Sequence record: MW233709 | DNA: 64,000 bases | Source of the DNA: Escherichia phage UPEC01 | Direction: 5' to 3' (one strand) | Part shown: positions 29,474 through 33,856 of the stretch, in pieces | Position numbering within the stretch: the stretch's first letter is position 1 | Layout of the letters: every line of letters begins with the position of its first letter | Notes under the pieces: generated by a model | What the model saw: only the letters and a program-made list of their open reading frames with translations | Told to the model about the DNA's origin: nothing | The model's database searches: none | Position numbers and translations under genes: made by a program

Positions 29474-29884
29474 ATGAAACAAATCGCTGATGAATACAGT
29501 TTTATAAAATACGCGGAGTTAGAGTTAGTCGATGGTAAAATCCCTATTCTTACTCTCGCGAACAAGAAAAATGTTATCTATGCTATTTCAGTTGATGATG
29601 AACTAGTGTATATTGGTAAGACGAACAACCTTAAGAAGCGTATCAACTATTACCGGACTGCGATTAACCGAATCGACCAGACGAGCGATTCAAACAAATC
29701 CCGGATGATACATGAAGCTTTACAAGAAGGTAAAAAGGTGGTATTCTATGCACGACAATGTTTCAATCTGTCAATGACCAATGAACTTGGCACAATGTCA
29801 GTCGAAACGATGTCTCTGGAAGAGCCGATGTTCATCAAGCTTTTTAATCCCCCGTGGAATTACCAACATAAGGTGAAGAAATGA
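29474..29884 (+). CDS. denA: endonuclease II (GIY-YIG family) DenA
   Basis: 136 aa from ATG 29474; VYIGKT.NL.KRINYYRTAINR and C-terminal KLFNPPWN match T4 DenA. Confidence 0.8.
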   Translation: MKQIADEYSFIKYAELELVDGKIPILTLANKKNVIYAISVDDELVYIGKTNNLKKRINYYRTAINRIDQTSDSNKSRMIHEALQEGKKVVFYARQCFNLSMTNELGTMSVETMSLEEPMFIKLFNPPWNYQHKVKK

Positions 29885-31017
29885 TTGAATTATATGATAA
29901 CTTAATGAAGCTTTGCGCCGAATCCGATAAAGGTAAGTTTTTCTATACGGATTTTGTTTCTCCATTTGAAACTAAGTTCCGCATCTTTAGCTATAACTAT
30001 GCTTCCTATAGTGATTGGCTTCTTGATGATGCGCTGGAGTGTCGTGGCATTATGTTTGAAATGGATGACAATGGTCCAGTTCGCATTGCCGCCCGTCCTA
30101 TGGAAAAATTCTTTAATCTGGGTGAGAATCCAATGACCATGGACCTTAACCTTGATGAGGTTGTCCTGGTTACTGCAAAAGCTGATGGTAGCTTGGTTTC
30201 TACTTATATGGACCAGACTAATATCGCCTTTAAATCCAAAGGGTCAATCAAAAGCTCCCAAGCTGCTGAATCCTTGCAGGTGTTTAAACAAGAGCATCGC
30301 AGTGCATTCAGGGCTCGCGTAACTGAAATCACTGAAGCTGGTTATACATGCAATATGGAATATGTTGCACCAACCAACCGCATTGTTTTGCCTTACCAGG
30401 AACGTGACCTGATTTTACTGAACGTTCGCCATAATGAAACTGGTGAATATATTCCTTATCAGGAACTGTTCAAAGATGCTGCGCTCCGTCCTTTCCTGGT
30501 TGAAGCATATGACCCGGCGAGCATTGAGAATGTTCGTGGTATGAAAGAGATTGAAGGCTTCGTCTATGAGCTGGCAAGTGGTCAGAAGTTCAAGATGAAA
30601 ACAGAATGGTATTGTGCTCTGCATCATACTAAAGACTCCATTAATAATAATGAGCGACTGTTTGAAGTTGTTGTTGCTGGCGGGGCAGATGATGTTATTG
30701 CCATGTTTACTGGCGATACTTATGCTCGCGAAAAAGTTAATGCCTTTACTGTAACGCATCTGGATTATCTGTCCAATACATTGGGATTGTTGCTTGATGC
30801 TCAGAAACAACTGGCAGGAAAAGACCGACGCGAGTTTGCGATTAAAGGTCAAGAGTTGTGCAAACCATACCCGGGATTGTTCTCCGTATTAATGAACACC
30901 TATCAACGCCCACAGGAAACTGAACAAACGATTGCTCAAATCAATAAAGTTTTCCTTAAAAATCATAAACTTTACATTCCGTCGGACTACCAAGCGGAAG
31001 TAATCCTTCCTGAATAA
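29881..31017 (+). CDS. rnlA: RNA ligase 1 (RnlA, gp63)
   Basis: 378 aa; RIFSYNYASYSDWLL.DALECRGIMFEMD, KADGSLVSTY (KxDG), IVL.YQE match T4 RnlA. Confidence 0.9.
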   Translation: MIELYDNLMKLCAESDKGKFFYTDFVSPFETKFRIFSYNYASYSDWLLDDALECRGIMFEMDDNGPVRIAARPMEKFFNLGENPMTMDLNLDEVVLVTAKADGSLVSTYMDQTNIAFKSKGSIKSSQAAESLQVFKQEHRSAFRARVTEITEAGYTCNMEYVAPTNRIVLPYQERDLILLNVRHNETGEYIPYQELFKDAALRPFLVEAYDPASIENVRGMKEIEGFVYELASGQKFKMKTEWYCALHHTKDSINNNERLFEVVVAGGADDVIAMFTGDTYAREKVNAFTVTHLDYLSNTLGLLLDAQKQLAGKDRREFAIKGQELCKPYPGLFSVLMNTYQRPQETEQTIAQINKVFLKNHKLYIPSDYQAEVILPE

Positions 31018-31027
31018 TAAAAAAGGG

Positions 31028-31057
31028 GTGTACAAGCCCCTCCTTTCTATACATAAT
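31028..31057 (+). promoter_or_regulatory. early promoter cassette
   Basis: GGTGTACA ... CATAAT; leader TCCATCAACTACTGA. Confidence 0.55.
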
Positions 31058-31088
31058 GGTTCCATCAACTACTGATGAGGACTAAAAC

Positions 31089-31322
31089 ATGTTAAACTTA
31101 ATTACAAATGAAAGAGTTACACAGGCATATGGTGACAGTAATGACGGAATCTATGTCTACAAGGGAGACCGCCGGATTGGTTTCATTACTGACCTGAAGG
31201 CCAAATTGTTAAAAGAACTGAAAGCTCAAACAGGTGATTCTGGGTTTAGAGCAAGAGCCAAAAAGAAAGATGAACGCCTGGGTGCCAACTCTTTTGGTCC
31301 CCGGGGTTACAACCGCTACTAA
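31089..31322 (+). CDS. hypothetical protein (77 aa), N-terminal paralog of following alc-like ORF
   Basis: Shares YGD..DGIYVYKG...IG..TDL.AKL with 31336 ORF. Confidence 0.45.
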   Translation: MLNLITNERVTQAYGDSNDGIYVYKGDRRIGFITDLKAKLLKELKAQTGDSGFRARAKKKDERLGANSFGPRGYNRY

Positions 31323-31335
31323 TGAGGAAAATATT

Positions 31336-31839
31336 ATGGATATGCAACTGATTTCAAATGAAATGATTGTCAATGAATATGGTGACCGTCATGACGGAAT
31401 TTATGTCTATAAAGGGACCAAGAAAATTGGTCTCATGACTGACTTGCGGAAAAAACTCGCCTCCGATAAAAAGTTGAAGGCGAAACAAAAAGAATATCGT
31501 GATAAAAAATCAGAAGAGCGGAAAGAAGCACTGCATGAATCTGTTCCTGAAATGGTTGACTTCTTAAAGAACCATTTGGTTAAATATGATGCAGAAGTGT
31601 TCATCAATCAGACCCAACCTAATGTGCATATCAATGGATGTGTTTGTTATGTTGTGGTTGAACCCCTGACACTTCAACACCGTCTGGGAATTAAACACCC
31701 AGTGTTGACCCAGGATGATATGGCGGATGAAGTTGGTAATCAGTTCCGCATTTCAGCATCTGACAGTACAAATCACATCCTCCTGAATGGTTTATCCCAG
31801 GATGATATTGTTGAGGTAATCATCAAGTTATGCAAATAA
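31336..31839 (+). CDS. alc: Alc-like protein (167 aa)
   Basis: Exactly 167 aa and between rnlA and pseT.3 as T4 alc; no sequence-level recall. Confidence 0.45.
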   Translation: MDMQLISNEMIVNEYGDRHDGIYVYKGTKKIGLMTDLRKKLASDKKLKAKQKEYRDKKSEERKEALHESVPEMVDFLKNHLVKYDAEVFINQTQPNVHINGCVCYVVVEPLTLQHRLGIKHPVLTQDDMADEVGNQFRISASDSTNHILLNGLSQDDIVEVIIKLCK

Positions 31840-32183
31840 GTAATCTCACTGCAGGGCTTATGCTCGCCCTGGTAGTAACTGCTGGTAGTGGTTTCTATCT
31901 AAAAGCAAAAGTGGATAATCTCAAGACAGCGGTGGCGGAAGTCACCAAAGTCGCAGAAGATAATGCGAAAAATCTACAATCAGTAAAAGACCAGGTTAAT
32001 CAAATTAATCTCCTTGACCAACAGCGCCAGGAATATGTTGAACACCTGCAGAAGGAAAATGATAAACTTCGCGCAGATGCAAAACGTACTAAGGTTGTGG
32101 CAGCGAAGCCTAAATTAGTTGAAAAACAGATTAATCAGTCTTTTGATAAGTTCGCCCAGGACTTCCAGGAGCTCACCAAATGA
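31830..32183 (+). CDS. i-spanin (PseT.3-like)
   Basis: N-terminal TM helix then long coiled-coil; ATGA-coupled to downstream lipoprotein; T4 pseT.3 position. Confidence 0.6.
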   Translation: MQISNLTAGLMLALVVTAGSGFYLKAKVDNLKTAVAEVTKVAEDNAKNLQSVKDQVNQINLLDQQRQEYVEHLQKENDKLRADAKRTKVVAAKPKLVEKQINQSFDKFAQDFQELTK

Positions 32184-32470
32184 TGAAATCTATCATGGCA
32201 GTATGTTTGGCTATTGGACTCGTTTCATGTGCCCAGAAGCCCGTTGTGGAGCCCACAATCCAAGTTCATCCTAATTGGCCTGTTGCATTGGCTGATTACA
32301 AACAGCAATGGGAAGTTAAGGTAATTGAGGGTCAAGCCTGGGTTGGCATGCCTTTTGAAGCATCGCAAGAATTCAGGATTTGGATGAATGATGTAAAAAG
32401 GTATGTACATGACCAAAAAGGTATGTTATGTTATTATCGTTCTGAACTAAAAGAGGAACGTTGCAAATGA
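32180..32470 (+). CDS. o-spanin lipoprotein (PseT.2-like)
   Basis: Signal peptide with lipobox LVSC, short periplasmic protein with conserved Cys; T4 pseT.2 position. Confidence 0.6.
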   Translation: MMKSIMAVCLAIGLVSCAQKPVVEPTIQVHPNWPVALADYKQQWEVKVIEGQAWVGMPFEASQEFRIWMNDVKRYVHDQKGMLCYYRSELKEERCK

Positions 32471-32570
32471 TAGAGTGTAGCCTTGGTTGGGATATTGTTA
32501 GATTTGGTGCATTCTGTTTTTGTTTTGGAATTGCGGCCACTTTATGTGTTCAAGGTCTTTTTGGAAAGTA

Positions 32571-32598
32571 GTGTACAAACTCTTGGGAGCATTATACT
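32571..32598 (+). promoter_or_regulatory. early promoter cassette
   Basis: GTGTACA ... TATACT in loop of inverted repeat GGGAGC/GCTCCC. Confidence 0.5.
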
Positions 32599-32634
32599 CT
32601 GCTCCCACGGATTATAAAATTTGAGGAAATTATT

Positions 32635-33856
<1,222 letters not shown>

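Follow-up and report, generated by a model that had tools for sequence, protein, structure and literature searches.

The stretch of DNA analyzed here (the window) comprises 64,000 nucleotides of Escherichia phage UPEC01 (sequence record MW233709), numbered from its first letter. Our subject is a pair of adjacent genes on its + strand, alcb and alc, found at the positions that a preliminary description, prepared without database searches, had given for ORFs of 77 and 167 amino acids (Table 1). When positions 30900–31900 were compared with relatives by megablast, TH41 and PSD2001 were 100% identical and 31 other records were 93–99% identical, which places the source in the genus Gaprivervirus (the SP18/VR7-like T-even phages of the Straboviridae). 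Judging by the neighboring genes, the order at the locus is that of the T4 rnlA-alc-pseT block. Within this otherwise collinear block, the interval between pseT.2 and pseT is a variable slot (32470–32952 in the window; 3070–3555 in L001, 3070–3715 in L002 and 3638–4135 in L020), where the small ORFs differ among the window, SP18, VR7 and metagenomic relatives.

Table 1. Genes and features of the alcb/alc locus, in window coordinates.
Feature	Position	Strand	Description
denA-like GIY-YIG gene	starts 29468	+	upstream neighbor
rnlA	29881–31017	+	directly 5' of the alcb/alc pair
Terminator-like hairpin AGGGGTGTACAAGCCCCT	31024–31041	+	overlaps the -35 element
Early-type promoter-like site	31028–31057	+	-35 GTGTACA (31028–34), 17-nt spacer, -10 CATAAT (31052–57); consensus scan
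Left duplication copy	31060–31306	+	~28 nt of 5'UTR with Shine-Dalgarno, plus about 70–72 codons
alcb Shine-Dalgarno GAGGA	31077–31081	+	7 nt 5' of the ATG
alcb CDS	31089–31322	+	77 aa, 8.7 kDa, pI 9.9
alcb codons 1–45	31089–31223	+	Alc N-terminal mini-domain (predicted helix 7–14, beta-hairpin 22–32) and start of helix
alcb codons 46–77	31224–31319	+	basic Gly/Pro-rich tail, not recognizably Alc-like, predicted disordered (pLDDT ~50)
Tail motif G-A-N-S-F-G-P (residues 65–71)	31281–31301	+	shared by the three AlcB lineages as G[AR]NSFGP
Right duplication copy	31307–31548	+	alc 5'UTR plus alc codons 1 to ~71
alc Shine-Dalgarno GAGGA	31324–31328	+	starts 2 nt past the alcb stop (TAA, 31320–22)
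alc CDS (parent gene)	31336–31839	+	167 aa; Pfam ALC, PHROG 1253, synteny
Alc C-terminal alpha/beta domain (residues 87–167)	31594–31836	+	predicted; absent from AlcB
pseT.3 and pseT.2		+	two spanin genes 3' of alc; small ORF after them
pseT polynucleotide kinase	starts 32952	+	downstream end of block

The preliminary description had proposed that the short ORF is an N-terminally derived, truncated paralog of its neighbor, produced by a local partial duplication, and that the neighbor may be Alc. Pairwise alignment by BLASTP gave 31 identities over 64 positions (48%) between AlcB and Alc with an E value of 2e-16, a significant match. The shared residues that it listed are indeed common to both proteins, namely N7 E8, Y14 G15 D16, D19 G20 I21 Y22 V23 Y24 K25 G26, I30 G31, T34 D35 L36 and K39 L40; the exception is the alanine of its AKL, which differs. 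Additionally, the Pfam family ALC (PF17527; curated gathering score 25 bits) matched residues 2–59 of AlcB at profile positions 3–62 of 177 (42.5 bits, E 7e-11), and it matched the 167-aa ORF from end to end (E 7e-49). This full-length match, the rnlA-alc-pseT.3 gene order and an identity of ~55% to T4-type Alc together identify the larger gene as Alc.

The repeat is not confined to coding sequence. At the DNA level it extends ~28 nt 5' of each ATG and includes the Shine-Dalgarno sequence (CTACTGATGAGGA upstream of one gene, CTACTAATGAGGA upstream of the other), and because it covers these upstream nucleotides it reflects a tandem duplication rather than a chance resemblance. Thus the partial duplication proposed earlier is borne out by the protein and Pfam matches and by a DNA repeat that reaches into the 5'UTR. 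Read from the alignment, the duplicated unit is ~247 bp and consists of part of the alc 5'UTR and about 70 codons; the boundaries of its left copy are approximate (~±5 nt), having been placed by DNA alignment against 31307–31577 and by comparison of the intergenic sequence across lineages. The 3' end of alcb (…GGT TAC AAC CGC TAC TAA TGAGGA) is the duplicated 5'UTR translated as protein. Since the final alcb codons originate in this way, we treated the MAFFT placement of the NSFGP of the AlcB tail under the conserved N-x-T-Q-P motif of Alc as an artefact. The two copies are now only 57–59% identical in DNA, which makes the duplication ancient. We also looked for recent gene conversion between alcb and alc and saw none, at this level of identity and with the longest identical runs being 10–16 nt.

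A promoter-like site lies upstream of both genes (Table 1), and the duplicated segment begins 3' of its -10 element, so alcb and alc should be carried on one early bicistronic message. The pattern GTTTAC[AT]-17-TAnnAT, which we take to be the T4 early-promoter pattern, also stands directly after the rnlA stop codon in two uncultured lineages described below (L020 and L025), in L022, and in JS98, T2 and IME523. The alcb Shine-Dalgarno is homologous to the site 5' of alc in phages that have no alcb, and is therefore the ancestral ribosome-binding site of alc. Directly after the rnlA stop there is also a GC-rich hairpin followed by CCTTTCT; it was found in all Gaprivervirus sequences and was absent from the other lineages compared. 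A search of positions 30800–32000 against Rfam gave no match to any family.

The existence of alcb is not new, the gene having been annotated since 2010. The SP18 GenBank record of that year names the pair alcb and alca, describes alcb as 'similar to N-terminal region of bacteriophage JS98 Alc', and encodes an AlcB (ADO19581.1) that is 100% identical to that of the window. In VR7 the gene is called ORF243c (VR7ORF243c), and the protein has a PHROG family of its own, phrog_17715, which matches AlcB residues 1–77 over profile positions 1–77 (E 2.9e-53); Alc matches PHROG 1253. All of these are the same gene with no structural difference, and the prior record consists of annotation only: our literature search found no functional, evolutionary or structural study of alcb. 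One GenBank record (EAWsc9) labels the product a 'PRC domain-containing protein', a label that we reject, as no Pfam or NCBIfam PRC model matched even at E ≤ 10. What is added here is the age of alcb and the selection on it, the conservation of a new motif in its tail, the way its domains relate to those of Alc, and its location, together with alc, 3' of one early-type promoter.

To define the state of the gene across the genus, we collected alcb from 15 genomes in addition to the window and found an intact 77-codon frame in 16/16. A 90%-identity cluster from a collection of 15 billion proteins has 38 members; among the 15 listed, 14 are 77 aa long and one is an 88-aa call from an alternative start. 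The position of alcb between rnlA and alc, on the same strand, is seen in the window and also in 15 genomes from GenBank or IMG/VR and at 3 metagenomic loci. The preliminary description had left the presence of the gene in related phages to be checked, and it is there, intact, in all 16 Gaprivervirus genomes sampled as well as in the two uncultured lineages.

The substitutions within the genus show that alcb is under purifying selection. Pairwise dN/dS (Nei-Gojobori) was 0.105 for the whole gene and 0.03 for tail codons 46–77, compared with 0.11 for alc codons 1–55, 0.045 for the remainder of that gene and 0.08 for rnlA at its 3' end. Synonymous changes account for 16 of 23 polymorphic sites in alcb, against an expectation of 22.5% (P = 2e-6), and in the tail for 11 of 14, the other 3 being non-synonymous (P = 3e-5). 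As the strongest conservation within the genus falls in the new tail and not in the Alc-like part, a key activity of the protein may lie in the tail.

The same substitution pattern bears on the start of alc. The alc frame is open upstream as far as a GTG at 31234 (window positions 31234–31335), which is why alc is annotated in places as a protein of 189 or 201 aa overlapping alcb (records CJ20, vB_YenM_P8 and DCP80; clusters P0003 and P0004). Third-position changes of alcb fall on position 2 of the extended alc frame, and the long calls are therefore unsupported; the pattern fits the alcb frame, and we rejected the longer starts.

Within Alc itself, the N-terminus (31336–31500, codons 1–55; L001–L015) occurs as two haplotypes, …NEYGD…TKKIGLM and …DVYGD…SKNVGFL. 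They are 82% identical in DNA, with pS at 0.34 over this part and 0.07 in the rest of alc, a distribution that suggests mosaic recombination. We looked for co-evolution of AlcB with the Alc N-terminus and saw none, the haplotypes assorting independently of the AlcB variants. Two frameshifted alleles were also noted. In a metagenomic ENA contig of 9.3 kb (P0002), a 35-nt deletion destroys the alcb tail and shifts the frame into the alc start; in the Tequatrovirus-type phage vB_EcoM-G28 (P0028), alc is recorded as frameshifted, at 63 aa. Each of these may be a null allele that exists in nature or a product of faulty assembly.

Outside the genus, alcb has divergent orthologs. In two uncultured lineages (L020/L021 and L025), whose Alc is 76–77% identical to that of the window, an ORF of 77 or 78 aa with an ALC domain occupies the same place. 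The AlcB of the L020 and L025 lineages is 45% identical to the AlcB of the window, at a distance where synonymous sites are saturated. All three lineages have nevertheless kept the length, the N-domain core and the tail, GF…R-x-G-[AR]-N-S-F-G-P-x-G-x-N-[KR]-[FY]-stop. Pfam ALC covers only about residues 1–48 of the divergent proteins, scoring 29.5 bits for the L020 ortholog and 23.2 bits, slightly under the cut-off of 25, for that of L025. When either protein was used as a tblastn query, the best match was Gaprivervirus AlcB over its full length. Between lineages, dN is 0.35–0.6 for AlcB and 0.16–0.20 for Alc, so that AlcB evolves ~2.5–3 times faster; this would fit a changed function as well as it fits a common partner.

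In the P0007 lineage, JS98, T2 and IME523, rnlA is followed directly by alc without alcb. From this distribution we conclude that AlcB originated in the common ancestor of the two uncultured lineages and Gaprivervirus. The P0007 lineage, with an Alc of 64% overall identity (75–85% for the C-terminal domain), groups in the Alc tree as sister to those that carry alcb, and by its position it may either never have had AlcB or have lost it. We considered whether the single P0007 gene is a collapsed alcb/alc chimera and rejected the idea, its N-domain being 36–42% identical to AlcB and no closer to it than to Alc. Across related lineages, alignments and identity matrices show the N-terminal 80 residues of Alc diverging far faster than its C-terminal domain (52% against 75% identity between Gaprivervirus and P0007, and 48% against 85% between P0005 and P0007); the N-terminal part thus appears, from these comparisons, to be the fast-evolving or exchanged part of the protein.

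Searches of large collections returned the same genes. In each of three independent tblastn runs against the phage collection, the matching places outnumbered the records by exactly 35, and all of the records listed with two places were Gaprivervirus, among ~800–1000 alc-bearing records. On these counts, two alc-type copies appear to be confined to Gaprivervirus in that collection. An HMM search of 1.84 billion representative proteins detected no other family of short Alc N-terminal proteins, the only short matches being a frameshifted AlcB, the frameshifted T4-type alc of phage G28, and the L025 ortholog. Further examples were likewise not forthcoming from a scan of IMG/VR, which gave three known genomes only, or from a word-indexed protein search with AlcB, which gave only its own cluster.

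To compare the domain content of the two proteins, we modeled them with AlphaFold2. The Alc model (from a 23-sequence alignment) has a pLDDT of 91.7 and consists of an N-domain (helix 8–15, beta-hairpin 23–33), a 47-residue, highly charged helix (34–80) and a C-terminal alpha/beta domain (87–166). No sequence relatives of Alc were found in the PDB; the closest solved fold to the predicted C-terminal domain is the C-terminal double-wing domain of T4 MotA. In the AlcB model the N-domain is as in Alc, with pLDDT above 90 for residues 10–40, and is followed by a shorter helix and a disordered tail. All AlcB proteins keep the invariant Alc N-domain residues G15, D19, G20, I21, G31, D35 and L36. The pI is 9.9–10.1 for AlcB and 10.5–11.6 for its tail, compared with 6.4 for Alc. 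AlcB thus lacks the full Alc architecture (N-domain, long helix and C-terminal domain, profile positions 1–177), and we regard it as a fragment-paralog and not as an Alc, because only profile positions 3–62 are matched and the model has no C-terminal domain. According to the models, AlcB is one Alc module that was kept while the spacer helix and C-terminal module were not. The alternatives 'decoy' and 'regulator', which the preliminary description had offered for the short paralog, both fit this predicted domain content.

Compared with T4 Alc (PF17527, PHROG 1253), which terminates host transcription on cytosine DNA, AlcB is homologous over the N-terminal ~46–62 residues, and alcb shares with alc its locus, promoter and ancestral ribosome-binding site. 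AlcB differs in lacking the spacer helix containing KQKEY and all of the C-terminal domain, ~60% of Alc, and in having a new basic tail (pI 9.9 as against 6.4). Transcription termination can therefore not be assumed for AlcB.

A comparable arrangement is known from microProteins, or dominant-negative truncated paralogs, such as Id in relation to bHLH factors and LITTLE ZIPPER in relation to HD-ZIPIII, which are eukaryotic and titrate their partners by heterodimerization. AlcB has the structural hallmarks of this class, in that its parent is multi-domain, one module is kept and the effector module is gone; by analogy, it could be viewed as a small, single-domain derivative of a multi-domain regulator that retains the interaction module. 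The likeness may not extend to heterodimerization: the part of the AlcB helix that could dimerize is not conserved among the AlcB lineages. In the L020 and L025 proteins, prolines and glycines from about residue 46 onward must bring the helix to an end there, and heterodimerization through the long helix is weakened as a candidate mechanism.

Within T4, a comparison can be made with Srh and Srd. These small T-even early proteins, annotated as decoys, are believed to target RNA polymerase through mimicry of part of a larger protein that binds it; the T4 record describes srh as a 'decoy of host sigma32'. Srh and Srd each look like one stretch of a host sigma factor, AlcB is derived from a protein of the phage itself, and there is no sequence relationship between them. 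T4 MotA has an N-terminal domain that binds RNA polymerase and a C-terminal double-wing domain that binds DNA. The predicted models suggest a similar two-module logic for Alc, of which AlcB would keep the N-terminal module only.

What the N-terminal module might do is indicated by work on Alc. Alc binds RNA polymerase (PMC2939025; PMC2988021), and the paf mutations that block its action, beta R368H/C and P345S/P372L, map to the main-channel mouth, between upstream and downstream DNA (PMC2939025). From the paf position, RNA polymerase-bound Alc could read cytosine modification (PMC2939025); its mechanism is reported as unsolved (PMC2988021). The placement of the paf site between the two DNA arms suggests a dock-plus-sensor arrangement, and the predicted layout of Alc, a dock, a rigid spacer and a second domain, fits such a picture. 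The N-domain of Alc could, instead of being an RNA polymerase dock, be an oligomerization or intramolecular module.

Taken together, these data establish the duplication, its age and the purifying selection on alcb, along with the predicted domain content and the placement of both genes 3' of one conserved promoter-like site. They lead us to propose that selection has maintained alcb as a genuine early gene and that AlcB docks on the partner of Alc, modulating shut-off; we put the probability of this reading at roughly 40%. The gene arose by an ancient tandem duplication of the alc 5'UTR and about the first 70 codons. According to the models, its 8.7 kDa product keeps the N-terminal mini-domain (helix plus beta-hairpin) with the core YGDxxDGIYVYKGxxxIGxxTDL and has lost both the charged, rigid helix that serves Alc as a spacer and its MotA-like C-terminal domain, carrying the basic, disordered G[AR]NSFGP tail instead. 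We infer that the gene is expressed early from the promoter of alc, using the ancestral ribosome-binding site, and that its product docks through the N-domain onto the partner of Alc, most plausibly the paf surface of the host RNA polymerase beta subunit. Once docked, AlcB may modulate the shut-off of host transcription, either through competition with Alc or because its new tail is thereby placed there. Weighing against this proposal are the faster evolution of AlcB than of Alc between lineages, the stronger conservation of the tail than of the Alc-like part within the genus, the P0002 deletion, and the lack of linkage between AlcB and Alc N-terminal haplotypes.

The conservation of the tail also allows a different reading, in which AlcB has been neofunctionalized. 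The N-domain would then be a mere scaffold, and the activity would reside in the basic G[AR]NSFGP tail, whose target would be nucleic acid or some other protein of host or phage and whose role would have nothing to do with Alc-mediated termination. Consistent with this, dN/dS is lowest in the tail (0.03), and no long stretch other than its motif is conserved in all three lineages, while the N-domain diverges quickly between lineages, to 44–58% identity. Furthermore, the tail is basic (pI 10.5–11.6), Gly/Pro-rich and predicted to be disordered, as is typical of a short linear motif. Set against these points are the seven N-domain residues listed above, G15 to L36, which are retained in every AlcB, and the apparent physical and transcriptional tie of alcb to alc in all lineages. 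Additionally, the tail motif occurs only once in a six-frame translation of TH41 and gives no clue to a partner. We judge this reading to have some chance of being correct, although we do not favor it.

A further possibility is that AlcB acts against Alc, blunting or redirecting it through occupancy of the docking site or through binding, and so sparing phage transcription. This idea starts from what may be an absence of hydroxymethylcytosine in these phages. According to two papers, Gaprivervirus has retained alc, denB and dCTPase but has no dCMP hydroxymethylase, the product of gene 42 (PMC12115623; PMC8056088), and T4 with cytosine DNA needs alc mutations (PMC12115623). Indeed, tblastn of the complete TH41 genome found no homolog of T4 gp42, beta-glucosyltransferase or Dam (best E 0.7), while it did detect gp56 dCTPase (67% identity) as well as UvsX and Imm. 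Between imm and uvsX, where T4 has gene 42, beta-gt and segA, the TH41 genome (L027–L030; positions 115192–117453) contains a 167-aa ORF with a lipoprotein-like signal (MKKLAIAAVMLLSGC…). With the hydroxymethylase lost, Gaprivervirus is presumably without hydroxymethylcytosine, and the phage collection yields alcb from this genus alone (the 35 extra matches of the three tblastn runs).

Several observations speak against an anti-Alc role. A promoter common to an inhibitor and its target is hard to square with the purifying selection on Alc (dN/dS 0.05–0.11), and the association with the missing hydroxymethylase amounts to a single evolutionary event. The Acinetobacter phages ZZ1 and 133, which bear Alc and are reported to have no gp42 (PMC8056088), are not among the two-copy records. 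Moreover, Gaprivervirus DNA may carry another modification that already blocks Alc. We therefore consider it unlikely that AlcB serves self-protection. A more specific version joins this idea to the docking proposal: by occupying or re-tuning the Alc dock on RNA polymerase, AlcB would let a T-even lineage without hydroxymethylase keep an active Alc. We hold this to be more doubtful still; were it so, either phage DNA would be spared or the DNA chemistry that triggers termination would be changed, and AlcB would amount to the RNA polymerase-docking half of Alc, dissected out by nature.

Two readings do without a function of the AlcB protein. In one, alcb would be a leader ORF whose translation sets the level of Alc by coupling at the TAA/TGA-GAGGA junction, the peptide itself being irrelevant. 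The alcb stop is 13 nt from the alc ATG in the window and 10 nt from it in VR7-type genomes and in L020 and L025, where the stop is the TGA within TGAGGA. As the stop adjoins or sits inside the alc Shine-Dalgarno in every lineage, translational coupling is possible on this arrangement. However, alc has a good ribosome-binding site of its own, and it is the amino-acid sequence of AlcB that is conserved, with dN/dS of 0.1, an excess of synonymous changes (P = 2e-6) and a 7-residue motif kept across saturated synonymous divergence. A pure leader function is thus highly improbable. The other reading, a decaying and functionless remnant, had been suggested by the preliminary description and would suit the truncation relative to Alc and the frameshifting deletion of the P0002 contig, but we reject it, since the gene is intact in all sampled genomes and conserved in length in three lineages, its dN/dS is ~0.1, its orthologs persist despite saturated synonymous divergence, and the 57–59% DNA identity of the copies makes the duplication ancient; P0002 apart, neither a disrupted or variable-length frame nor a dN/dS near 1, the marks of a pseudogene, was found.

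In terms of phage biology, alcb is by its distribution a clade-specific change at the alc locus, and its association with the missing hydroxymethylase rests on one evolutionary event. Because AlcB is found in the one Tevenvirinae genus that has alc, denB and dCTPase without dCMP hydroxymethylase, it is a candidate piece of that puzzle. Should it have no link to Alc, AlcB would be one more conserved small early phage protein. As its most likely role we infer that of a stand-alone docking module that acts on the Alc/RNA polymerase pathway. A natural, selected, stand-alone Alc N-terminal module offers a ready-made domain dissection and a handle on the mechanism of Alc.
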